This document shows, in pieces, positions 6,801 to 64,000 of a stretch of 64,000 nt of DNA. Origin of the DNA: Ruditapes philippinarum (lineage: Eukaryota); NCBI RefSeq assembly GCF_026571515.1, contig NW_026853973.1, positions 434,001-498,000 of the forward strand, in the 5' to 3' direction. The position numbers and the translations under genes are program-made. Positions within the stretch are counted from its first letter, which is position 1; every line of letters begins with the position of its first letter. Below the pieces are notes generated by a model, which made no database searches, was not told where the DNA came from, and was given only the letters and a program-made list of their open reading frames with translations.

Positions 6801-9800
6801 TACTAAAAATATTTTTATGAAACTTAAAATATGGAAATATGTCAGTATGGAGAATATGCACATTATTTTTTCTTCCTAATTGAAAAATCTTTTTGCTATG
6901 ACAACAAATGGACTTGAAATATTAGGCAGGCAAACTTTACAATGATACAGACAAAGATTGACCTTGTTCATTTATGGCAAAATTGAAAGGCCATGGCCCG
7001 TCATAGTGTTACTGATATGGTTCTTATGGGGTTTGAACATGTAGGGGACTTTGTGTTATATGCAATACTTTGATGATTGCTTATTATTTTGTTGTTGACT
7101 ATAATGCAAAAGAGATTTTTTTTTTTCAATTAATTCTTGTTTCAATTAATGTACTTATTACCTTATTATTCCAAGAATAGGGAGAGCTGTTGTACTCACC
7201 CAGGCTTTCGCATCTGTGTTTATGCTGTCATTGCTGTAACTCTTTGGTTTCTCAGAAACTCCAAAAAAAAAATGTTTAAGAAATAATATCGGTCTGAGTG
7301 GTGTTTAACACTGGTTTAGAGTTTTGATCCGTATGATGCCGTAGGCCTGAGTGGTTAATTTTTTCGCATCAAAACGACTTATTTGAGAGTATAATAGGAG
7401 GTCACTGTACAAAGCCCTTATCTCTTAAATGAACTGAATTTAGTCACAAGAGCTAAAAAAAAGAAAAATCTTGTTAACTATATAGTGTTGTTATCCAAAT
7501 ATCTTGTTAATTGGTCTCCTAGTTTGCTTTGATGATTTCTAGGTCAAGTTCGAATATGGGCACCTGGGGTCAAAAACTAGGTCACTGCCCAAATATAGAA
7601 AACCTTGTTAACACTCTAGTGGTCACATTTTTGACACAATTGTCAAACTTGGTCAGGATGCTTGTCTTAGTAATTGCTTGGATGAGTTTGATGGGTCAGA
7701 TGAGCGATCTAGGGCCATCTTGGCCCTCTTGTTTCTTTTTGTTACTTTTTATGCCACCGCAGCATCTGCGATGCGGTGGCATATAGCGATTCACCTGTGT
7801 GTGTGTGTGTTTGTTTGTGTGTGTGTGTGTTATATAGATTATATAGTGAACTTAAAAAATCTTCTTGTGAAAAACCACTTGTCCAATTTCAACCAAACTT
7901 GGCAGGATTGTTCCTTGGGTGAAGGGCTTCCAAAGTTGTTCAAAGAATTTCATTCCATGCAGAAATCTGGTTGCCATGGCAACCAAAAGGAATTATAAGA
8001 ATAAATTTAAAAAATCTTCTTGTAAAGACCCAAAAGGCCTAGAGCTTAGATATTTTGCATAAGGCATTGTCTGGTAGACCTCTAACAAGATTGTTCAAAT
8101 TTTAGCCCTGGGGTCAAAATTGGCCCCGCCCCGGGGGTCATTGATTTTCACTATGTACATATAGTAAAAACTTAAAATACCGTCTTGTAAAAACCCAAAA
8201 GGCCTAGAGCTTAGATATTTTGCATAAGGCATCATCTGGTAGACCCTTACCAAGATTGTTCAAATTATAGCCCTTGGGTCAAAATCGGCCCCGCCCCGGG
8301 GTCATTTATTTTCGCTATATGTACATACAGTAAAAACTAAAAACACCTTCTTGTAAAGACCCAAAAGGCCTAGAGCTTAGATATTTTGCATAAGGCATTG
8401 TCTGGTAGACCTCTACCCAGATTGTTCAAATTATAGCCCTGGGGTCAAAATCAACCCCGTCCCAGGGGTCATTGGTTTTCCTTATATGTATATAGTAAAA
8501 ACTTAAAAAAAAAATCTTCTAGCAATTGACAAATGCTAGGGGTTAGATATTCTGCATGAAACATTGTGTTGTAAACCTCTGGCAAGATTGTTCAAATTAT
8601 AGCCCTGGGGTCAAAATTACCCCCGCCCTGGGGGTCATTGATTTCAATATATACATATAGTGAAAAATAAAAAAATCTTATTGTCTGAAGGTACAAGGCT
8701 TAGATCTAGCTTTAATATTTGTTAAATAATATCATCATATGAAAGGTACTCTACCAAAGATGTTCAAATTTTGCCTCTTGTGTCAAAATAAGCCCCGCCC
8801 CTGGGAGCCATAGGTTTATCTTATATGTATATAGTTAAAACTTAAAAAATCATCTTCTCTAAATTGACAAAGGATAAAGTTAAGATATTTTGCATGAAAC
8901 ATTATGTAGTGAACCTCTAGCAAGATTGTTCAAATTTTAGCCCTGGGGTCAAAATTGGTTCCGCCCCGGGGGTCATTGATTTTCATTATGTACATATAGT
9001 GAAAAAAAAAATTTGTCTGAAGGTTCAAGGCATAGAGCTTTGATGTTTGATATATAATATCATCTATAGGTCCTCTACCAAAGTTTTTCAAATGTCAAAA
9101 ATTGGCCCTGCATGGGGGCAGTGATTCTCATTATGTACACGTAGTAAAAACAGAAAATAAAACAAATGTTTTCTGAATGGGAGAAAGCTATAGCTTAGAT
9201 ATTTGACTTGAAATGTTGTTTTGTGGACCTGTATCAAGATTGTTATTAAACCCTTGGGTCAAAATTATGCCTTGCCCAAGGGGACAATGACCTACTTTCT
9301 TGTCCTTTGATGTACAGCAATGACATTTTGACCATGTGCACAGTTTTAGTTGTAAAATTGAACTTTGACCTAGATTTTGATGATGTGACCTACTTTCTTG
9401 TCCTTTGATGTACAGCTATGAAATTTGAACCATGCGGTGGCATAGCATTTTTCTCAAATGCAATCTTGTTGAAATTTAAGTTACTTTTCTCTTAACAGCC
9501 CTGACAATGTTAGACTTGTCAGCAAAACTAAAATTGAGATGCCAAATGGGGAAAACCTTTAAAAAGTAGTCTCGTCATTGAAAAGTGTGAAATTATATTT
9601 TGATAATTTTCACTGTGAAGTTATCAAATATAATTTTCATAGATAAATCAGTAGTCCACTCAAAAGCATAAAATAAAGGTCAAATAGTGGTAATGGGTTG
9701 TTTTGAAAAGAAAGTTAGAGACAAGTCTAAACTTTTGTTAAAAGACAAGGAAATTCCGCAGATTTTGGGTGAATATTATTTGTGTAACTAGAAACTCATT

Positions 9801-16325: not shown

Positions 16326-19051
16326 TTTTATGCCACCGCAGCATTCTCTGCGATGCGGTGGCATATAGCGATTCACCTGGTGGTGTGTGCGTGTGTGTGT
16401 GTGTTTGTTTGTTTGTTTGTGTGTGTGTGTGTGTTATATAGATTATATAGTGAACTTCAAAAAATCTTCTTGTGAAAAACCACTGGTCCAATTTCAACCA
16501 AACTTGGCAGGATTGATCCTTGTGTGAAGGGCTTCCAAAGTTGTTCAAAAGAATTTCATTCCATGCAGAAATCTGGTTGCCATGGCAACCAAAAGGAATT
16601 ATAAGAATAAATTTAAAAAATCTTCTTGTAAAGACCCAAAAGGCCTAGAGCTTAGATATTTTGCACAAAGCATTGTCTGGTAGACATCTACCAAGATTGT
16701 TCAAATTATAGCCCTGGGGTCAAAAATCGGCCCCCGCCCTGGGGGTCATTGATTTCACTATATGACATATAGTAAAAACGTAAAATACCCTCTTGTAAAG
16801 ACCCAAAAGGCCTAGAGCTTTGATATTTTGCATAAGGCATTGTCTGGTAGACCCTTACCAAGATTGTTTCAAAATGATAGCCCTGGGGTCAAAATCAGCC
16901 CCGCCCGGGGGTCATTGGTTTTCACTATATGTACATATAGTAAAAACTTAAAATACCTTCTTGTAAAGACCCAAAGGCCTAGAGGTTAGATATTTTGCAT
17001 AAGGCATTGTCTGGTAGACTTTCTACCCAGATTGTTCAAATTATAGCCCTGGGGTCAAAATCGGCCCTGCCCCGGGGGTCATTGGTTTTCCTTAGATGTA
17101 TAAAGTAAAACTTATAGTAAAAACAATTGACAAATGATAGAGGTTAGATATTTTGCATGAAAACATTGTGTAGTGAAACCTCTAGCAAGATTGTTCAAAT
17201 TATAGCCCTGGGGTCAAAATCGGCCTCACCCCGGGGGTCATTGATTTTCAATATATACATATAGTAAAAATCTTATTGTCTGAAGGTACAAGGCTTAGAG
17301 CTTTAATATTTGTTAAATGATATAATCTATAGGTACTCTACCAAAGTTGTTCAGATTTTGCCTCTAGTGTCAAAATTAGCCCCGCCCCGGGGGCCATATA
17401 GGTTTTTCCTTATATGTACATAGTAAAAATTTAAAAATCATCTTCTCTAAATTTATTAAGGCTGGAGTTAAGATATTTTGCATGAAACATTGTGTAGTGA
17501 ACCTCTAGCAAGATTGTACAAATTATAGCCCTGGGGTCAAAATTGGCTCCACCCCTAGGGGTCATTGATTTTCACTATGTACATATAGTAAAAAAAATGT
17601 CTTGTCTGAAGGTACTTTAAGGCTTAAGAGATTTTATATTGGGTATGTAATATCATGGGTCCTCTACTAAAAAGTTGTTTTTAAGTATGCCCCTAGAGTT
17701 GAAATTGCCCTGCCCCAGAGGCGATAGTTTTCCTTATATGTATAAAGTTAAAATGTTGGGTCGTCCGTGGCCGAGTGGTTAAGGTCGTTTGACTTCAAAC
17801 CACTTGCCCCTCACCGCTGTGGGTTCGAATCCCGACAGGGACTTTGGATTCTTTCATGTGAGGAAGCTATCCAGCTAGCTTACGGGACGTTGGTGGTTCT
17901 ACTCAGGTGCCCGTTCGTGCCTGAAATAATGCACGGAGGGGGCACCTGAGGTCTTCCTCCACCAGTAAAAGCTGGAACGTCGCGATATGACCTATACTGT
18001 GTTGATGTGACGTAAAACCCAAACAAACAAAAAAAATAAAGTTAAAACTTGAAAAAATTTCTTCTCTGAATTGACAAAGGCTAGAGGTTAAATATATGGC
18101 ATGAGACTTTGCGAAGTGAACTTCTACCAAGATTGTTTCAAATTATAGCCCTTGGGTCAAAATTGGTTCCGACCCGGGGGTCATTGATTTTCATTATGTA
18201 CATATAGTAAAAAAAAAAAAGTATTTTTGTTTGAAGGTACAAGGCATAGAGCTTTGATGTTTGCTATATAATATCATCTATAGGTCCTCTACCAAAGTTG
18301 TTCAAATTTTTCCCTTGGTGTCAAAATTGGCCCTGCCCAGGGGCAGTGATTCTCATTATGAACACATAGTAAAACAGAAAATAAAACAAATGTTTTCTGA
18401 ATGGAGAAAGCTACAGCTTAGATATTTGACTTGAAATGTTGTTTGGTGGACCTGTATCAAGATTGTTTGAAATAAAACCCTTGGGTCAAATTTTGCCTTG
18501 CCCAAGGGGAAAGTGACCTACTTTCTTATCCTTTGATGTACAGCAATGAAATTTTGACCATGTGCACAGTTTTTAAGTTTGTAAAATTGAACTTTGATAT
18601 CAGGTGATCTAGATTTTGATGATGTGACTTACTCTCTTGTCCTTTGATGTACAGCTATGAAAATTTGAACCATGTGCACAGATTAAGATGTAAAGTGAAC
18701 TTTGCTATTAGCTGACTTAGATTTTAACAAAGTGTCTTACTGTGTTGTCCTTTGATATAGTCATGAAATTTAGGCTGTGAGAAATATGACCTTCACCACC
18801 AAATTAACAAGACTCAAGTGCATTGATATATTCCTACTCTGATCTTTTGTTGGATTAACAATAGATTCAACCACTAATCTGTTGATAAGAATTAGATAGG
18901 TCAGGGATCTATGCATTATGACAATCTTCAATTGTATAGAAACAAAAATATCCGTTCCTACACTACTATTTATTGTTGTATTAATGCACACTACTATTTA
19001 GTGCTGTATTAATGCGGTGGCATAGCATTTTTCTCAAATGCAATCTTGTTT
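16326..19051 (+). mobile_element. HINE/DINE-like element (copy 2), longer, interrupted by a SINE
   Basis: Same termini, microsatellite and core repeats as 7746-9470; inserted in a T-run of a short local repeat (TTTTTGTTCNGTTGGT on both sides). Confidence 0.85.
17754..18035 (+). mobile_element. Full-length tRNA-derived SINE (central domain possibly Meta/MESC type)
   Basis: A box TGGCCGAGTGG, B box GGTTCGAATCC, conserved body, (AAAC)n/A tail, 12-bp TSD ATAAAGTTAAAA at 17742-17753 and 18036-18047. Confidence 0.9.
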
Positions 19052-23400: not shown

Positions 23401-25237
23401 CATAAAAAACAAATGGTTCGTTCTTAAACTTTTGTGTCAACATTATAGATTTTTAAAGGAAAGGGAACTGCATTGACGTTGTCACATGTTATAACATCTG
23501 GGTTATGCAACATGTATAATTTCTTTGAAAGTTCAAAATTCCATTTCTTTATGTCAAAGCTTCTTTGCTATATTTGCATTCATTTATCAATATATTTTTT
23601 TATTACAAATACAAAGTATTTCAATAAATTTAATCATAGATGGTTATTATAATAATATTTTCAAAGATATTTTCTGAGTAAATCAACAAATCTTGGACAT
23701 ACTATAATATAAAGAATATATTACAGCACTGACAATATCTCTGATCACGAAGAATATTTCCACTAACTTACCTATTTACCTTAACCCCTAAGTGTTACAA
23801 TATAAATTAAAGGATCTAAATTATTTTAAAGTTTTACTGATAGTCATATTCAAAAATGAGTAAGGTTCTGAATAAAAAATATTGTGTTTTTCTCCTTTAA
23901 AATATACCTGTTATAATGATTCTATCTAGTTTTCAAAATCTATCAAGTACATTATTGATTTTTATTTTCACTTCTTGTCGTCTTTTGACGGTTCTTGTCC
24001 ACAGGGACCCAGCACAGTGTTGGGATAGTTCTAGCAATAAATGTGCATGTTGTATATATAATATATAGACAAGTGGTTGAACTCGCCTAATCCGCCGTGT
24101 GCCACTTGTCCAGTATAAGTCAAAATTGCAAAGTCATTTTTACGTAAATCATATAAAGCTATATATCGAATTGAAGCTTAATGACATCACCACTAGACGT
24201 TAACAATGACATAATTGTCCCCACTCAAACTGTTTTTAAACAACAAACTCGATTTTCTACGTTTGTGCATTGAACTACTTTTCGGCTCAAAAATTCATCT
24301 CTTTGGCTAATACTTTGGAAATTGCTGAAGGTAGATATCACAACCTTCTGCTTTAAATAAAACCGTTCAGGGCATGGGTGGTGACGAAAAGTTGTAGCGA
24401 AAGTTACCATTGTACTTTAACAGGCGGATGTGCCGTCATTAAACAAATATGCTACACACGCATAAAAGTACGTAAATACATACATTCATTCTGAGGAGAC
24501 GGATTGGATATAAGCAAATGGTTGCTGATCCTAAGTTTGTGGTAAAAATATTGGCATTGTAAGAAGCCTGAGGAAAGTAAAAACTCGAAAGGGTACACTG
24601 CTACTGGCTAAGATTAAAATGCTTTATCTTTTTTCTTTGACAATCTAATACTAAGGAAGAAGTAACCGATTTTGAGTTAACCAGAAAAAGAGATAGTTTT
24701 GTATAATTACTGTTGCCAAAAAAGGCCAAGTGTTCTAACCATTCGTGGCTGTAGCCATCCCGCAAACCAAATCGGCCACACATGTAAGCATTTATTAAAT
24801 CTCCAAACAATGTTCAAGTAATTCAGTATCATCAAAAAGATCTTACGTATTCTTGGCCGGATACATGTGAATTAATAAAGACATGTTTATTTAAGAAATT
24901 GCCTTAAGGTCTTAATCAGAAAGTATTTTAACCAACTAATTAAAAAGATTCACCAGAAGTTAACTAAATACTAAGACACTATAATTTGTTTTCAATCTTT
25001 AGTTCATCATTTTTGTATTAAAAAGTGATATTTTGATCTATTCTCCCCTTTTCCTAAAAACAATTAATTTCGACCTTTTGTTATTAACAGTGACTTTCCA
25101 TAAATCGCAATTCATCAGCTAAACATTCAATAAATCTTATATTTAGACTTTACACCTCAGTGTATCTCCTTTAAGTGTTAAGAGGATATATAAATAGATA
25201 AAGTAATTTATAAGAGGAATTCACGTGTGAAAATTAA

Positions 25238-25449
25238 GGGGCCTCCGTGGCCGAGTGGTTAAGGTCGCTGACTTGAGATCACAGGTCCCTCACCGCTGTA
25301 GGTTCGATCCTCACTCGAAATCTTTCATGTGAGGAAGCCATCCAGCTGGCTTACGGAAGGTCGGTGGTTCTACCCAGGTGCCCGCTCGTGCCTGAAATAA
25401 TGCCCGGAGGGCACCTGGGGTCTTCCTCCACCAATAAAGCTGGAAAAAA
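25238..25449 (+). mobile_element. tRNA-derived SINE, same family as 17754, normal 3' tail absent
   Basis: GGGGCCTCCGTGGCCGAGTGGTTAAGG head, B box, shared body. Confidence 0.85.
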
Positions 25450-31334: not shown

Positions 31335-31550
31335 ATTTGTTAGGTTCTACGTAGCACAAACACTGTAAAGGTAATATGGCGACTTCACTCATTTACCTGT
31401 GCAGGGAGACCACCGGTGCATTATTCAAGTGGCACCTAAGTAGAACCACCGACGTTCCGTAAGCAAGCTTAATAGCTTCTTCACATTGAAAAGAATCCAA
31501 CGTCTTTAGCGGTATTCGATCTTATAGCTATGAGAGTCATATGACGCCCC
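31335..31550 (-). mobile_element. Degraded copy of the tRNA-SINE just upstream of the TLR start
   Basis: Reverse complement of the SINE body (GTAGAACCACCGACGTTCCGTAAGCAAGCT...TCACAT). Confidence 0.7.
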
Positions 31551-43889: not shown

Positions 43890-44639
43890 ATCGGTTCACA
43901 GAGGATATAGTTTCGAGTAAATAATTCAAATGAATATTGAATGCAATAAATGTGAATTACATTCTGCACAAGAACTGATCATTTTTTTAGCAGAAATGCG
44001 TTAATTGGGATTTGTTTATTTTAAGCTTCTTTCGACTTTACGGCCGAATAACTGCTTAAATTTAAAAGGGATTAGTACTAAATGTCTTACGAGTATTGTT
44101 TAAAACTTTCCTTAGCAAAACTATAATTAACTATAATTATATATATTATATATTATATGTATATATTAATAATTCAAAAATAAGCTGCTTAGCATTGTTT
44201 GATGTCTAATTATAGAACATAATCGTAAAATGTTCGCTTACATATGGATCTTCTTATTAGTAAACAATATTATTTGACATAGATTTCATGTCTTAACTGA
44301 AAACCTTTGATATAATGGGCGTTATTACTTCCAAATAACTATCTTAATCGGCAAATGTAATTTACGTGTTATTGAACATGAATTTCAGAATAAAATACAA
44401 ACAATGCTTCATTAAAGTGATCCGTAAAATATGTTGATCGATCAAAAAAATTTGATTTCATGAAAATTTATGCATGTTGTATAAATAATTTCGACTTTTA
44501 ATAGTGACTAGTATTACTAACTTAAACCTCTTGTACTCATGTACTACGTGTATGTTAAAATTTGAAGACTTGACAAAAGATATCTGAAGCTGTTTTACAA
44601 TTATGTCGGATAATTTAATCACCTATTCTTAAGGATAAT

Positions 44640-44876
44640 TGAGCTGCGTCACGACAAAACCAACGTAATGTGTTTGCGATCAGCATGGATCCAGACCAGC
44701 CTGCGCATTCGCGCAGTCTGATCAGGATCCATGCTAATCGCTTACCAACTCTATTAAAAGTAGGGAAACTGATAGCTAACAGCATGGATCCTGATCAGAC
44801 TGCGCGGATGCGCAGGCTGGTATGGATCCATGCTGGTCGCAAACCCATTATGTTAGTTTTGTCGTGACGCGGCTCA
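44640..44876. mobile_element. Complete palindromic MITE (~237 bp, ~95-bp inverted arms)
   Basis: TGAGCTGCGTCACGACAAAAC...GTTTTGTCGTGACGCGGCTCA. Confidence 0.9.
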
Positions 44877-46820
44877 TTTAATTGTATAGTAAACAATGAC
44901 TCATCCATATATTGCACCATTCTTGTTGAAATATAGTTTTATAAACACGTGTTATTAGTTTCCGAATTATCATATGAAAAACCTTTCACTAAACGGACAT
45001 TGTATTAACATGTTAAGGTAAACAAAAAACAAAATTGTTTCACGTTTTAAATCTTGGAATCCCGTTAAACTATTAATAGTTAGATACATGTTTGTTTATT
45101 TATAGAATATCAAGCGAATATGCGTATTTTAAAATTGAAAAAATCCAAGTAATATATATAAATATATTTTCAGAAATAAATTAGATTTTACTTAAACATG
45201 AATTTTATATTTTTTGAAAATGGTTTAAAAAACGTTAGATGCTTGTTACCTGAAAAAAAAGTAGCGATAAATGCGAAATATTTTTTTTATAAAAGTAGCA
45301 ACATGTAAAAAAGTAGTATTTTGACTTCCATACAAAATACTAATTCACAATAAGTAATAGTTATATTATATAAAACGAGTTAGTTACGAGGATATAGCGA
45401 TATTAAGGGATGTTTCTGCCTTTGCCCCAGCAACTAACAAGTTTTTCATAAATTATAACTGTTTTATCGAAATTTCATAATTTTCTTGCAATAGAAATCA
45501 GCACCCCCCCCCCCCAAAAAAAGACAAAAACAAACAAACAAATAAAATAGGGCTCTTTTGTGCCTTTTCACTTTTGTTTCAAATGGAAACCGCAGATAAA
45601 ATGAACCAATACCATCTAATGCTCTAATGCTGTCGTAAGCAACCTTACAGCTATTAATAATAAGACAGTTGTTTGATGTTGTTTTCGTTGCCGCAAAAAA
45701 GGAGGAAGTAGTGTGGATTCTAGATTAAAGATGTACCAGTTGTATATTTGAAAATAAATTAAATAAATAAATTTCATTGATTATCTTTGTTTATATTATT
45801 CGGAATGTTACTTACCGCTGCCCCATTAGAGGCTCTGTGGGAAAAAACAGCTGATGCTGTATACAAAGTACGAAAAAACTCAACTGTTATATATTAGCTG
45901 AGTTTTCTTTTACTATATAAATATATGATAAAACTGCACTGTTTTATATCAATACAGTTTTCAAATGCTCAGAAAGAAAGAAAAGCAACTTTGAAACCAT
46001 GCGATAATTGTATCTATAGCCAGAAAACAACATATGAAAAAGATGGCTCTGGTAATTGGCCAAAGAATAACTTTTTTGGTTACTATAAAAATACACCCAA
46101 ATTAAAAAGCTTTTGAGAAATAAAAATAAAAGGATTTCTGAGAGAAAAAAGGCCGTTAAAATCATTCATGATAAAATGATACAGAATAAAATCATTATCA
46201 ATTTTAAATAATAAATTAATGTAACATTATTTCATAACACGAAGTACCTTTTAAAAAGATACTCGGCCGAAGTAATACTGTTTAACATGCGAAAGTATAT
46301 TATTTTTAAGTTTTCAATACAAAAAGAAATGTTGGCAATGCTTGCACAACAATGACATGATAATTATTTCTTGTAGCTATTAAGAAAATACCCATTTTGT
46401 AAAAATTGAAATTAAATTATAGCATATTGATATTGATGATTTTTCAAAGAAAAACAACTTCCATTTAAGGTGTCATTTTAACTTGTTTGACTTTATAAAT
46501 TTTGTAATCATTTACAAATTAACCTAAAAGTTAAAGACCTATCATCATTCCTGTACATTTTATAGTTTAGAACTATCCTTTACATTTTATTTTATATTGA
46601 TAGTGACAAAACTATCCCTTACATTTTATCATAATTTCATTTTAGAATAGTAAGAACTATCCTTTTTTTAGAATGTATAGAACTAACCTACGAGAAACAC
46701 GGATTTCAGTTTGTAATTTTATTATGACCAATGAAAATTCTTCTTATATTCAGTCCGTCCCTGTTAATTTTACAGGAAGTCAAACCGATAACAGACGGAC
46801 TTCGTCCGAAAAAAATCTTC

Positions 46821-51371: not shown

Positions 51372-51622
51372 TTTATTTGGTTTTACATCGCACCAACACA
51401 GAATAGGTATTATGGCGACTTACAAGCTTTACTGGTCGAGAAAGAGCTCAGGTGCCCCTCTATACATTATTTCAGGCAGGCACAAACGGACACCAGAGTA
51501 GAACCACCGACGTTCCGTATGCTAGCTGAATAGCTTTCTCACATTTGTGCGGCTAAAACTTACTGTGGTGAGAGGCATGTGGTGTGAAGTCAATGACCTT
51601 GACAATTCGGCCACGGACACCT
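51372..51622 (-). mobile_element. tRNA-derived SINE copy (a second fragment lies at ~51745-51830)
   Basis: Reverse complement of head (TCGGCCACGGACACC) and body. Confidence 0.8.
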
Positions 51623-52494
51623 CTAAATGACTTTACATTACTTCTAATATTGACATGTTGTAAAATTCTTAAGAAGGAAAAACTACAGTTCAGTAGGATT
51701 TTAGTAAAGCACGCACTTTGTCATATATCGAGTTCCAGACTTTACTGTTTTTTTTTTCAGGCACGAACGTGCACTTGAGTAGAACCAACGGTCTTCTTTG
51801 AGCAAACTGAATAGTTTCGTCGTATAAAACAAACACAAGTATCAAAGCGGGATTTAAAAATTAACTGTGGTTAGGTGCACCGACCTTAAAGCATAGAACT
51901 GAAATGACCCTATACACCATATGGTATGAAATCACATTTGAAACAAGACTGGTCAGCTTAACATTGGCTAACTTGGCAAAATATCCAGTGAACTTCTGCG
52001 TTTTCCCCCATTAATACTTCTGTCCTGTGTCAATATCTGCTGATGTTATAAATGATAAAATGTATTTTGTTTCTATCTTCAGTTTTATTTTTAGTTATCT
52101 TTAAATTAAATATAAAAAAGGAAACATTTAGTTTGACGAAAACGTTAACGTCAAAAATAAAGTTGTTAACAAAACCCAAGTCAATTATTGTATCCTATTC
52201 ATTTGTTATTGAATGCATAACATTATCGGCTGAATAAACAACAATGGAATTTCTGAAGAGTTCGTCGATTCAACACCAATCCTTTACAATCAAATATCGC
52301 ATTGATTACGACGTTTTGATAAATGCACCTTTTGAGATAAATATCGTAAAGTCATATAAATCTTACTGCAAAAAGCGAAAAGTAAAAAAAAATAATAATA
52401 AGAAACAGTCGTTAAAAAATAAAACAGCCATATAACACAACAAGATGTTCTATACAAGAAAACTTTGTATTTGGTTTATACAGTATATAGTTTA

Positions 52495-53509: not shown

Positions 53510-54165
53510 TCAAAGACAGAAAAGGCCGGTTTGCATTTGTATACCAAATATCATGAGACTGTGATGTTGCGAAAATTTCCTACCATTGACCATTAATGTC
53601 GAAAATTTAACTAAGTTGGTAAACAGGAAATGGATGATTGACACACCTGAAATCGAATCCCACGGTATGGGACTACGTGTCAATGTTGTATGCCAAATAT
53701 CAAGAGGCAGTGATAAGTAGTTACTGAGAAAACTGTTACGAAAATTTGCTTTCATTGACCATTAATGTCGAACATTTAACTAAGTCGGTAAACTGAAAGT
53801 GGATGAGCGACGGACCTGAAATCGAATCCCACTTTATGGGACCATGTGTCTATGTTGTATGCCATATATCAAGAGACTTTGAGTAGCAATTGCTGAGATA
53901 ACTGTTCCGAAAATTTCTACCATTGACCATTTATGTCGAAAATGTAACTGAGTCGGTAAACAAGAATTGGATGAGCGACAAACTGAAATCGAATCTCAAG
54001 GTATGGGACTATGTGTCAAGGCTGTATGCCAAATACCAAGAGGCTGTGATAAGTAGTTGCTGAAAAAACTGTAATGAAAATATTTTTCCCACCCGCACGC
54101 CCGCCGCCCGACATTCACCATACTATAATCCGGGTTTGCACCTGTGCAACCCGGCAAAAAAAACC
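53510..54165 (-). mobile_element. Third HINE/DINE-like family with ~169-bp core repeats
   Basis: Three to four tandem cores (CATTGACCATTAATGTCGAA at ~53584, 53753, 53921), GC-rich microsatellite, terminal inverted CCGGGTTTGCAC..GTGCAACCCGG. Confidence 0.7.
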
Positions 54166-57600: not shown

Positions 57601-58699
57601 ATTTTTTGCCATAACAGTTTGAGTTTGAAACATACGGTTGAATGTCAGCATTGTATTTCTTGATCTGCGATCATAAAATACAAAAACGACTTATAGGACA
57701 CAGTATTTGTTACAAGTTCATTCAAACCTGTATATATGCTGAATTTCTACACAAATACTATACAGAAAAACGAAATGATATGTACAATTTTCAGATCAAG
57801 ATATTCTTAAAGTGGCGCTTTATAAATAAATGCTATCAATTAAAAATCTCTGTAAGATTATGTTGTGACAGTGTATTGTGCTAAAATATGCAGTAAATGA
57901 ATACATGCATGATAAATCTAGAGTAATTTAATGGAATTGTGATTCTTTTATTTCATATATAAGTTACACTATCAAGCTAAGTAACAGCTATGGGGAGATT
58001 TTTTAAAGTTTAAATCTTCTACGATTCAACATCATTGCTTTGAAACGAATTAACAAATCAATTACGACCGTTTCATAGATACAGCTGTTGTGATTCATCT
58101 ATAACTTATACATAAGGTGAATATAAATTAGAAAAAGTTAGTTAAAATTAAACAGCCACACTACAAAATTATGAGGCATCTCCGTGAAATTGTTGAACAA
58201 TGCTCAAATTAAAAGATACTCTATACAGTAGAAGCTTTAATATACATGACTTTTATAAAGGTATAGGTGCAACCTATTACTTTTTTGACACAAGTGCTGT
58301 TAAAGCTGCATGTTATATAATGCATGACTATCATTAAAGCAATAACACACAGTATGTTTGATCCTTTCCAAAAAAAAAGCAAACAGTTTTCAATTTTGTT
58401 TCAATTAGATATTTTCAGTCAGTTAGACTGAAAATATCTAATATAAGAAACATCGGATTACCTAGAAATTTGATATATTCCATTTACATTTTCAGCTTAT
58501 ATTAAATGGTTATTATACTCAATTTTATCTTTTGTTATATAATTGAATGGTTAAAAAGTTATTGTATAATTTAATATAATATTGTATTATTGTATTAATA
58601 TTTAGAGTATTATGTAATTCCTATATAGCAGACAAATTATTTATAAATCTTATTAGACCGTCTGATTTGAAGGACACATTAATTGGATTAAAATTTATT

Positions 58700-58933
58700 T
58701 GAGCCGTGTCACGACAAAACCAACATAATGCGTTTGCGACCAGCATGGATCCAGACCAGCCTGGGCATCCGCGCAGTCTGATCAGAATACATGCTGTTAG
58801 CTGTCAGTTTCTCCATTTGTAATAGAGTTGGTAAGCGAACAGCATGGATCCTGATCAGACTGCGCAGGTCAGGCTGGTCTGGATCCATGCTGTTCGCAAA
58901 CCCACTATGTTGGTTTTGTCGTGACACGGCTCA
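58700..58933. mobile_element. Complete palindromic MITE, third copy
   Basis: TGAGCCGTGTCACGACAAAACC...GGTTTTGTCGTGACACGGCTCA. Confidence 0.9.
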
Positions 58934-60504
58934 TTTGTATATTCTGTTTATCTAGCATTTTCTAATAAAACTTACTTGCACAAATAAATTGAGAAATAGG
59001 GATTCGATTGGTTGTGTTATGATTGTTGGCAAAGTTTTAATGATGATTAAAAATATAACACAATGCATATATTTTTATGTATAATCAACATTGTATCTAT
59101 GTTTTGTATAGATTAATATGAGCGTCATTAATATTATAATAAAAATATCAAGTTTCGATATACTAATCATCTTCATATTAGTTTAACTTACGTAATTTGT
59201 AGAAATCTCTTAATATGAAAAATGATGTCTCGTATTTCTATATTTCCTTTATGCCTATTTAACATTTGAAATCGAAAGTAAACTATAATTTCTCTATCAT
59301 TATTTTTTTTTATAAAAGTGCAGGCCTTTTTACAGATTTAGCTAGTATTTTGAAATTGCAATATTAAAGTACTTAACTTGCGCAGTCAACAATTTTCCAG
59401 GTTAAAATATGAGCCGACTGCACGGATAAACAAGCTATACTGGTGGCATACCGTGTAGGTCTTTTATTATCTCAACTATAAGAAACATATTTACAGGTTA
59501 AAGTCAAAGAGAATTATTCAATTGATAGAGACATACCTAGCATTTTAGCATGTAAGGTTATAAATGGATATAAATATAATGCGAAAAATTTGATTTGAGC
59601 AAATTAAGATTGCTTTCATTATAAACGTTTCACTTTTATCGAAACATTTGTGACCCAAGCGATATATTGTTTATAATTTCTCATTTCCATCCTAGTTTTG
59701 TATATAATTTTCTATAAAAGAGCATATTCACTGCGTTTCAAACAAAGGATTTTAATTTGTAATATACTATGCTGCACCAAGAATGATAAAAAACTGATAC
59801 ATAAAGTTATGATAATATCGTATTTCATGATTGAAATTGTAAATAAAAATTAAAAAAAAAGACCGAAAAATTCCTATGGTAACTGTACACAGTAAGAATA
59901 TGATTGCACAATATGCAAAATGTACGAAGGAGAGACAAATGAAACACAATTGAAAAGTGTTTTTAAAAACATTTTGGTATTTTCATCACTTTAAAGGAAG
60001 CATTTTTTCTGTCTCGTTTCACTGATATATAACTAATTTCTGAAAAACAGTTTTAATTATGTTTTAAAGTTGCCAATAGAAATCAAATTTGTAAGTATAC
60101 TAACTTCATACAGTATATTAACTATATCAATAAAAAATTAAATAAATTAAAATGTGATTCGAAGAAATAAAACTATTCAATAAATGTTGTATAAATACAA
60201 GTATTTATATCCACATTCATACAGGTATACTCATGATTGATGTGGATCCATTTAAATCAATGTAAATATCACGCCATTAGTAGATAGTTTGACAATTTTC
60301 TTCCCGTTCCTAATAGGATAAGATTCTAGACAGTAAATATATGAATGGCAAATTCAAATGACAAACTGACATTTATTTCTAAACAAAGATACATTAAAGT
60401 CATGATGAGCTGTATATAAGAGGCACCTGGGACAATACATTGTCTTTATAATACACTACATTGTGGTTCATGTGTCCCGACAGCTAATGGATATAAAAAT
60501 ACTA

Positions 60505-60796
60505 GCATAATAAAAATCTGGAAACAAAGTGATCCCTCGGAAGCATTAATCACAACAAAATCACATGGAAATTGCAGACTCGGTTTGATTGAGTCTGTAA
60601 ATGAGGGATAATGAATAAGTGCACCATCCCTCACGTCCCCTAGCACCGGCTTGAGCGGTACTCAATTCTTAACACTTAATAGTGCTGGTATCAATGATCC
60701 CGAAGGACCAGAAACATATAACAACACTGAAGTGAAGTACGGGGCAACTTTTTACAGCAGCCACACAGCACTTGACACCTGCTGTTGTGAAGTATA
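60505..60796 (-). ncRNA. Candidate structured RNA or ancient repeat, copy A
   Basis: Diverged inverted paralog of 61485-61785 with conserved hairpins, including TGGTCC-TTCG-GGATCA; family not recognised. Confidence 0.4.
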
Positions 60797-61484
60797 AAAA
60801 TCTTTACCCACGAATGCTTTTGATTTTTGTATCGGTATACTTATAAGTATATCTTTATCGTATTCAATAATACATAGTGTATATTTCTCGACTGCCACTT
60901 ACACTTATAAACAGCATGATGAATCTATGTTTATAAAATGATATACGTTTAATCGAGTATCTTGAAATTTACAAATTTAACTTTTTAGTTTATTTGATAC
61001 CGGTATAATGCATTCAGACAAGAAGCTGCTATGAAAGTCATTTTGGTTCATAACAAAATTATTCTGTTAATTAAGAAATTAATCAACCTGCCGATTATAA
61101 AATAGATCAAATAAATGAATTAGAGATAATTATATTGTTTGGAAAAAATATGTAAGTGAAGTAATTGATGTTGGTATATTATCTTATCTTTTCCGCGATA
61201 ATGAAGATAAAACGAAATGTGTACATGCATTATAAAACGCCATTGGCTTTATTCCTTTACTTTGCACCTCTCTTTCTTGTGTTGTTTTAAAATAACTCCT
61301 TGAAGATCAACATCAATTAACTCTCTGAGGAAAGAACACATGAAAGAGCCATCTAACATCTGGAAAAAGAACGTTCATAGTAAAAGAACGTTCATAGTAA
61401 GAACTACTATTATGCTTAAAACATTATTTCGGGAGAAATTTGAAATTTAAAAGGAAATGTCTGTAAAAAGTTTAATTGTTTGAC

Positions 61485-61785
61485 TTATTCTTCACAACAG
61501 CAGGTGTCAAGTACCGGTGGAAGCTTTAAAATTTACCCGTAATTTACATCAGTGTTGTTTTGATTTTCGTTGCTATATTTCTCTGGTCCGTCGGGATCAT
61601 CGATTCCAGCACATTAGTGTCGACTATTGAATACTGCTTAAGCCGGTGCTAGGGGACGTTAGAGATGTTGCACTTGTATATTATCTCTCATAAAAAACTC
61701 AATCAAACCGAATCTGTTACTTACAAAATTATTGATTTCGGTGCTTCCTAGGGAACACCACTTTTCCAGATATTTTTATATCATG
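61485..61785 (+). ncRNA. Candidate structured RNA or ancient repeat, copy B
   Basis: Shares blocks CTTCACAACAGCAGGTGTCAAGT, AAGCCGGTGCTAGGGGACGT and ACTCAATCAAACCGA with copy A; compensatory change in one stem. Confidence 0.4.
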
Positions 61786-63271: not shown

Positions 63272-63412
63272 CTTCCAGCTACCTTACGGAATGTCGGTTC
63301 TACTCCGGTGCCCGTTAGTGCCTGAAATAATGCACAGAGGGGCATCTGAGGTCTTCCTCCACCAGTTAAGTTGGAATATCGCCATATGACCTATACTGTG
63401 TTGGTGCGACGT
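63272..63412 (+). mobile_element. 5'-truncated tRNA-SINE copy
   Basis: Body and tail match 17754-18035 (GGCATCTGAGGTCTTCCTCCACCAG...TATGACCTATACTGTGTTGGTGCGACGTA). Confidence 0.8.
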
Positions 63413-64000
63413 AGTTTTAACAAAGACCTGCTTTCATTTTAGAGATGTCTTTAGACAACCAATTAAGAATTTTCTTACAGTTAAACGACCTATGATTTTA
63501 ATTGTATGTGAAATATGTAAAATTCCATTTTAATAAGGCGATATGTGTACCATTTTCTGAACAAAACAGAACCAATGTTGGCCAAAACAATGTATATTTC
63601 CACTAAATATACTGTAACATACATGTGTATGGTAATGTGTTTGACGCAAAATATAGCGAATGGTTTATTACTGAATCAACCTGTAAAATATATATCACAA
63701 AACGTTTATGGTAGAAAATTAACCAAATAATGAACATTATTTCCATTTGTTTGTGTTTCATATTAATCACACTTTTCTTATTCATTATATTCATGTGTTA
63801 TATTTTATTTCATTGTTATTATTCTTAATGAACGCCTAGTTCTCAGTCGCTTGGAATGATCAACAAATTTGTAAATCTAAAGGTGACAATGGTAACAGAA
63901 TGCTTTTTTTCCAAATCATTTCAAATGAGTACTTACAAATTGAAGCTTTTTATGCTAAAACACAAGCGATTACACAAATCAAACATGCACTGTGTTATAT

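Follow-up and report, generated by a model that had tools for sequence, protein, structure and literature searches.

An abundant non-coding repeat in Ruditapes philippinarum that shares its 5′ head with a Naiad Penelope-like retrotransposon

Two similar elements of about 290 nt lie head to head in a 64,000-nt stretch of the Ruditapes philippinarum genome (the window), and the locus raises the question of what such a pair might be. The original prediction offered either divergently transcribed structured RNAs or an old SINE body under structural constraint. The pair itself exists as described: elements A and B align at 74% identity over 306 columns (E = 2e-47), with ends better placed at 60512 to 60795 and 61487 to 61777, respectively. 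The parts of the locus, in window coordinates, are as follows.

60512 to 60795, minus strand: element A, one full 284-nt unit of a young 283-nt non-autonomous family, ending in CCAGA plus a T-run
60796 to 60803, minus strand: tail remnant (8 nt) of the preceding unit, found by extending back into the unit tail
60676 to 60795, minus strand: head of A, a long 5′ hairpin (about 60788 to 60721) and the sequence after it, homologous to the 5′ head of an autonomous Naiad
60561 to 60670, minus strand: conserved core of A, with an invariant segment, covarying hairpins H2 and H3 and a candidate pseudoknot (fold z = −3.85)
60804 to 61486, no strand: spacer between A and B, AT-rich (28% GC) and unrelated to the repeat family or Naiad
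61487 to 61777, plus strand: element B, an older, decayed unit of the same superfamily, 73 to 76% identical to the 283-nt family
61622 to 61730, plus strand: conserved core of B, with H3 partly broken, scoring 90.6 bits with a covariance model whose training set includes B itself, and folding no better than shuffles

Given the 8-nt remnant of the preceding unit's 3′ end, A is an insertion of 1.03 units. The best 40 scored matches in the genome are 92 to 97% identical to A and about 75% identical to B, and among its best matches B has no full-length relative closer than the 283-nt family. Against shuffled sequences, A folds well on the minus strand (z = −4.58; plus strand, z = −1.56), while the fold of B is no better on either strand (z = −0.72; core alone, z = +1.05). 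A pattern designed for a B-specific subfamily gave 117 matches, but 24 other loci retrieved were closer to A than to B, and this candidate was rejected. The spacer had no BLAST match among the collected loci, and no Naiad reverse transcriptase match was found in the window. A and B are two separate insertions of different age, A young and B old, and not a special gene pair.

The family to which they belong is abundant. A 20-nt core word common to the 283-nt family and a second, 629-nt family has 14,866 exact matches in the genome (reversed control, 0), and 38 of the first 100 matches listed have A's variant. DNA read depth, a rough measure taken from Hi-C reads, corresponds to roughly 1.3 to 1.5 × 10^4 copies, and genome searches with A or B returned more than 3,300 candidates (3,354 in the first look), of which the best 40 were scored each time. 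Of the 97 cores listed, 24 have a neighbouring core no more than 1.2 kb away, so a close pair such as A and B is unremarkable. Copies of the 283-nt family form short head-to-tail arrays with a 283-nt period. The second family, with a period of 629 nt and 99% identity among its best copies, has the head, core and T-rich tail in common with the first and about 350 extra nt between head and core. This sister family is very young (L062:273-2159 and genome-wide), and its folded insert has no Naiad match.

Relatives were also recovered from marine metagenome contigs, where 56 of 59 matches to a 19-nt pattern extend into family-like sequence and represent several further lineages; we infer that their hosts are other marine animals. 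The remaining three (L132, L133 and L138) are GC-rich chance matches, and the seven viral-contig matches to a 16-mer are all apparently due to chance (the model was run on five of them, with a best E value of 0.16). One distant relative (L143:592-734, minus strand) has the invariant segment and H2, with a far longer insert in the H2 loop. A core 15-mer was absent from the paper texts searched, and 14-mers of the core and head were absent from one supplement of PMC8557442. No description of the family was found in the literature on Naiad non-autonomous elements and ribozymes and on bivalve retrozymes, and Dfam or Repbase may already name it. The window holds other repeats as well: a 37-nt tandem array and several arrays with a period of about 165 nt (840 to about 4000; 7940 to 9250 and 16550 to 18510; 53647 to 54081), a separate dispersed SINE-like repeat unrelated to A and B (17805 to 17929, 25233 to 25400, 31428 to 31539, 51384 to 51840 and 63319 to 63413), and copies of a palindromic MITE-like repeat (1 to 188, 44636 to 44883 and 58695 to 58936).

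We asked what the arrays reveal about insertion. They contain one to five units head to tail, with the 3′ end fixed at the T-run: for the 283-nt family, 56 of 60 arrays stop no more than 5 nt from the unit end, and for the 629-nt family 45 of 58 do so. The arrays had been chosen as best matches to full units or by pattern, which biases them to intact copies. Unit junctions are uniform (identical in 39 of 61 and 21 of 30, respectively), and internal units are full length. The 5′ ends of the 283-nt family are spread along the unit (KS p = 0.54; 56 arrays), with a slight excess at the unit start (5 of 56 versus 1.6 expected; p = 0.02), and those of the 629-nt family are not uniform and are skewed to its 3′ half (KS p = 0.003). 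Truncation had seemed to peak 50 nt ahead of the junction, but the retrieved loci show no such hot spot, which is therefore a tool artefact. Flank duplication did not exceed that of a shuffled-pair control, and empty-site DNA reads for both insertions at locus L034 join the flanks with only 2 to 3 nt of shared T. Variants are shared at 1.13 per 100 nt within an array (80 pairs) versus 0.19 between arrays (7,423 pairs), a sixfold difference consistent with repeated copying of a single template or with a multimeric one. Neither unit, at 283 or 629 nt, is long enough to encode a reverse transcriptase.

A candidate partner was found beside the repeat. The flank of locus L012 encodes the C-terminal part of a reverse transcriptase, with a SECIS-like element downstream (33 bits, against a cut-off of 35), and longer copies of the partner have an N-terminal GIY-YIG-type region, a DKA motif, the reverse transcriptase and in-frame TGA codons. 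A Pfam scan of the partner's C-terminal 221 aa alone returned no reverse transcriptase family, and the Naiad assignment comes from translations compared by eye with portions of PMC8557442, in which clam Naiads include selenoproteins. Judged by these sequence features, which match the clam selenoprotein Naiads of that paper, the partner appears to be an autonomous SECIS-bearing Naiad, a Penelope-like retrotransposon (PLE). One young copy is apparently complete.

L238:1832-6095, minus strand: apparently full-length young Naiad of 4.3 kb, containing TGA codons in frame and, beyond the open reading frame, a SECIS-like element

This copy begins with the head directly after its tandem junction. The Naiad head is 93% identical to nt 3 to 85 of the 629-nt unit and 83% identical to nt 25 to 82 of the 283-nt unit; the head of A matches it at 87 of 122 columns (score 89; best shuffle, 40), and the head hairpin is predicted alike in Naiad, the 629-nt unit and A, with a similar one in B. 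The 5′ hairpin of about 75 nt singled out in the original prediction is, by this homology, the 5′ head of an autonomous Naiad, and the strand chosen there for A and B was the right one, being the Naiad coding strand. Among 40 scored Naiad copies, 34 have the head from its start, and in 12 of 15 retrieved copies a head stands right behind the Naiad 3′ end, the same type of junction as in the repeat. Likeness to the Naiad 3′ tail is significant only for the 629-nt unit (shuffle p = 0.006, versus 0.08 for the 283-nt unit and 0.16 for A). The L238 Naiad also has a donor-like site 298 nt short of its 3′ terminus and, some 210 nt downstream of the head, an acceptor-like site rich in pyrimidines; the two suggest a putative intron spanning the Naiad tandem junction, as in Penelope and Chlamys-3.

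Naiad and the repeat are neighbours more often than expected. Exact matches to the Naiad 3′ end number 5,123 in the genome, and of 37 listed, 12 have a core no more than 1.5 kb away, versus 3% expected; Naiad 3′-UTR pieces are present in the locus of 20 of 53 and 19 of 44 arrays, all found without a Naiad query. Nested insertions occur in either direction, with indels of 0 to 5 nt. Template switching between Naiad and the element was considered for the chimeric junctions and rejected, as longer flanks show nested insertions (L182, L193, L017, L242, L082 and L238); at L239 and L240 no far-side piece is visible. Since the chimeric joins, where both sides are visible, are later nested insertions, the co-location shows shared targets, not one reaction, and the clustering of Naiad and cores could partly reflect repeat-tolerant regions.

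These features can be set beside those of known elements. Non-autonomous Chlamys PLEs (MRC1 and Chlamys-N4_cRei) are, like the repeat, non-coding multicopy insertions arranged head to tail, and they and the autonomous Naiads resemble it in 5′ truncation, lack of a clear target duplication and sequence in common with an autonomous PLE with an N-terminal endonuclease (portions of PMC8557442 and PMC9977147). PMC8557442 describes, for Naiad and Chlamys elements, insertions in partial tandems, truncation at the 5′ end and non-autonomous partners present in many head-to-tail copies. Optional features of such elements are a tail of 30 to 40 nt, inverted 5′ copies and a microsatellite bias. The repeat has partial tandems, a fixed 3′ end, shared terminal sequence, a Naiad partner, no reverse transcriptase capacity and no target duplication; no class with such a tail was seen, the 3′ ends lying within 5 nt of the unit end, and inverted neighbours are present in some loci. 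It differs from the Chlamys elements in its animal host and Naiad partner, non-autonomous partners being described only for Chlamys in the available portion of PMC8557442. Furthermore, the common part is mainly the 5′ head and not the 3′ end, and the repeat has an additional covarying core, which the partner lacks and which persists in lineages from other datasets. The most likely reading is that the repeat is a non-autonomous partner of Naiad and that a circular or multimeric RNA was its template for reverse transcription.

The suggestion of an old SINE body came close, in that this is a retroposed, non-coding repeat, but named the wrong kind. The tRNA-derived bivalve SINEs are likewise short and of high copy number, with a conserved central domain. 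However, Rfam, ARAGORN, and word and flank tests found no tRNA-, 5S- or 7SL-derived head, no Pol III B box and no target duplication, the units are in tandem, and the partner is a PLE rather than a LINE.

We hold it probable that A is a young insertion, and B an old one, of an abundant non-coding repeat that shares the 5′ head of a Naiad and was likely copied by that Naiad's endonuclease-reverse transcriptase. This reading draws directly on the number of copies (about 15,000), the array anatomy, the shared head, the mutual nesting with Naiad and a covarying fold. In the mechanism that we envisage, the Naiad protein would bind the shared head hairpin, nick AT- or T-rich DNA and prime cDNA synthesis at the U-run just 5′ of a head. 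A U-run takes up that position only where two units meet, which makes a circular or multimeric template likely. The enzyme would run through junctions until it falls off, leaving one to five units from one template. Internal initiation and AT-rich cleavage are documented for the enzyme of another PLE (parts of PMC11167929). The core, which is missing from Naiad, might make or process the template, and this is the weakest step; its simplest role would be to cleave itself so as to release unit-length RNA for circularisation, as happens in retrozymes.

How far the core behaves as a folded RNA was assessed with 25 hand-chosen core sequences from several lineages and a structure derived from one of them. 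The 23 proposed pairs hold in 84.8% of cells. Two-sided changes number 76, versus a mean of 31.9 in shuffled controls and 4 to 15 in slid controls, these counts being inflated by relatedness of the sequences. Such changes affect 6 of 10 pairs in H2 and 4 of 7 in H3 (together 10 of 17), H2 occurs in at least five different complementary versions, and many of the changes in pairs are of the G-C/G-U kind. Among 17 full units, two-sided changes were also found in the head and in a long-range helix. Our covariance model found nothing in Naiad, and its best score outside element copies was 8.6 bits. The folds computed for circular units are likewise stable (z = −6.1 for 283 nt and −4.9 for 629 nt, with 70% and 61% of bases paired) and are strand biased (z = −6.1 versus −0.5 on the other strand). 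The 110-nt core is a conserved predicted folded RNA, strongly covarying across lineages and absent from Naiad and Rfam.

The individual stems fared differently. Two-sided changes across lineages occur in the 5′ hairpin, as proposed, in CAGACTC/GAGTCTG and in AGGGAT/ATCCCT. For the last, the single compensatory pair between A and B that had been put forward is weak alone: among 30 matches to the AGAGAT arm from 25 loci, six have the matching partner and 14 the unchanged one. The proposed TGGTCC-TTCG-GGATCA hairpin competes with a long-range helix of 12 to 13 bp that has two-sided changes. The small TAC(C/T)G stem next to the invariant segment has no two-sided change and is paired in 76.8% of cells, versus 94.4% for a rival pseudoknot that joins the invariant segment to the H2 loop with the same bases and has only one-sided changes. 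The pseudoknot fits better than the small stem and is a possible candidate. No two-sided change occurs in the most invariant part of the core, a G-rich stretch. Within the 283-nt family, variants shared by at least five arrays keep pairing at 7 of 11 paired sites, versus 25 of 131 for singletons (p = 0.003). Since shared variants keep pairing more often than singletons, selection acts on templates while inserted copies decay, as B has. Together with the covariation between lineages, this agrees with the earlier view of a structured RNA under constraint.

That the elements resemble no known RNA was also upheld. Rfam at gathering score gave no match in the window, ARAGORN found no tRNA on the elements, and an Rfam search by E-value on nine loci (L001, L002, L030, L012, L062, L041, L089, L103 and L007:700-900) gave on the element only weak matches far below cut-off. 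The hammerhead core word is absent from both strands of A, B and the 283-nt and 629-nt arrays and was seen elsewhere only in two metagenome loci, on the reverse strand and with its second half missing. Words for hammerhead, hairpin, pistol, twister-sister, Sm, C/H boxes and telomerase template, used as short motifs, are not conserved across families. Twister models had no match on element loci and, in genome searches, none above cut-off among the 80 of 14,721 (P5) and 63 of 62,726 (P3) candidates scored; five weak P3 matches are unrelated. Inspected by eye, the core bears some resemblance to the order of parts in twister: a stem of 3 bp bearing a pyrimidine-AAG loop, then a G-rich segment, then a closed hairpin. 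The core departs from twister (Rfam RF02684 and RF03154) in a loop that is one base short, in having no P2 partner in the expected place and in its lack of an Rfam match.

A strongly folded motif lies in the Naiad 3′ UTR (z = −5.44; L007:748-860, plus strand; L185; L012:2199-2326, minus strand; relatives in L098, L114 and L123). By eye, its parts follow the order of a type-P5 twister ribozyme. Rfam had no match to this motif. The PMC8557442 supplement contains two published Naiad consensus sequences that share the motif and show compensatory changes at its putative P2 and P3. Naiads have been reported to be without hammerheads.

Animal non-LTR retrozymes provide the other comparison. They too are short, low-GC tandem units that are highly self-paired, and their mobilisation by PLEs from circular RNA has been proposed (portions of PMC7229834 and bioRxiv 10.64898/2026.07.22.740005); they make circles with a hammerhead (PMC7229834, in part) and are argued to be non-autonomous PLE derivatives (bioRxiv 10.64898/2026.07.22.740005, in part). 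The repeat, known here from its sequence and predicted fold, differs from them in having no type I hammerhead, no large target duplications and one family of 629 nt. It resembles a retrozyme in array anatomy but, having no hammerhead, does not belong among them.

Transcripts were sought in two unstranded RNA runs (X23 and X24, of which 6 and 12%, respectively, were covered; tissue and selection unstated in the record). The families account for 199 and 285 reads per million in these runs, versus 16,361 in DNA. On locus L034, 84% of the aligned RNA reads continue into unrelated sequence and few are 99% alike, and the reads show neither start or end peaks nor a unit-length transcript. The signal in X23 and X24 comes from embedded copies that are transcribed passively, and circles that are short and non-polyadenylated may have escaped detection. 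Runs X21 and X22, recorded as RNA-seq, yet have the GATC ligation joints and loose ends typical of Hi-C DNA and were used only as DNA.

The most serious competing explanation retains the dependence on Naiad but makes the template a linear monomer or read-through transcript, with arrays arising by repeated jumping on one RNA and the core serving as a promoter or protein-binding element rather than a ribozyme. We regard it as possible, though not probable. The lack of any hammerhead, twister or other Rfam ribozyme match suits it, as does the G-rich invariant stretch, which lacks two-sided changes as a DNA-level promoter word would. The mild surplus of 5′ ends where the unit begins would allow for jumping on a linear monomer, and PLE transposition in vitro is independent of ribozyme cleavage (parts of PMC11167929). 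It sits less easily with full-length internal units and uniform junctions, with 5′ ends that mostly fall inside the unit, and with H2 and H3, which covary as RNA helices. For the core by itself, a role as promoter or protein-binding element is about as likely as a ribozyme-type one. The fullest version of the circular-template reading is more doubtful: the 110-nt pseudoknotted core would be a new class of self-cleaving ribozyme that cuts tandem transcripts into unit RNAs, which would circularise and serve as templates for rolling copying by the Naiad enzyme. The repeats would then be retrozymes without a hammerhead, and Naiads would use their 3′-UTR twister-like motif likewise. Should a self-cleavage assay of the core prove negative, the family would be an unannotated repeat of an ordinary kind.

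Much less probable is a relative of rolling-circle DNA transposons (Helitron or Helentron type) with folding single-stranded DNA, even though tandem arrays, one fixed end, T-rich sites and the lack of target duplication would suit it. Helitrons start with TC after an A, and the 283-nt unit, when read on its other strand, has TC as its first two bases behind a run of A, but the 629-nt unit is without that terminus. Moreover, the strand bias of the circular fold and the many G-C/G-U changes argue for RNA, and the head is Naiad sequence in Naiad sense orientation, a homology that already appears to weaken this reading. Least credible is a domesticated pair of non-coding RNA genes at this locus, divergently transcribed as in the original prediction, for which the head-to-head arrangement and the good fold of A speak, but A is an ordinary member of a high-copy family, the fold of B is largely lost, close neighbouring cores are common, the spacer matched none of the collected loci, and the two are dispersed copies of different age among about 15,000.

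What looked like a mysterious pair of non-coding RNAs is better seen as a minimal parasite of a Penelope-like element. The head hairpin common to the repeat and Naiad is a likely cis signal for a class of enzymes whose mechanism and tandem formation are poorly understood, and a 283-nt template is a far easier substrate than a 4-kb element on which to compare circle and jump models. Considering that the covarying core sits where retrozymes have their ribozyme, it may also serve as a cheap candidate for a self-cleavage assay.
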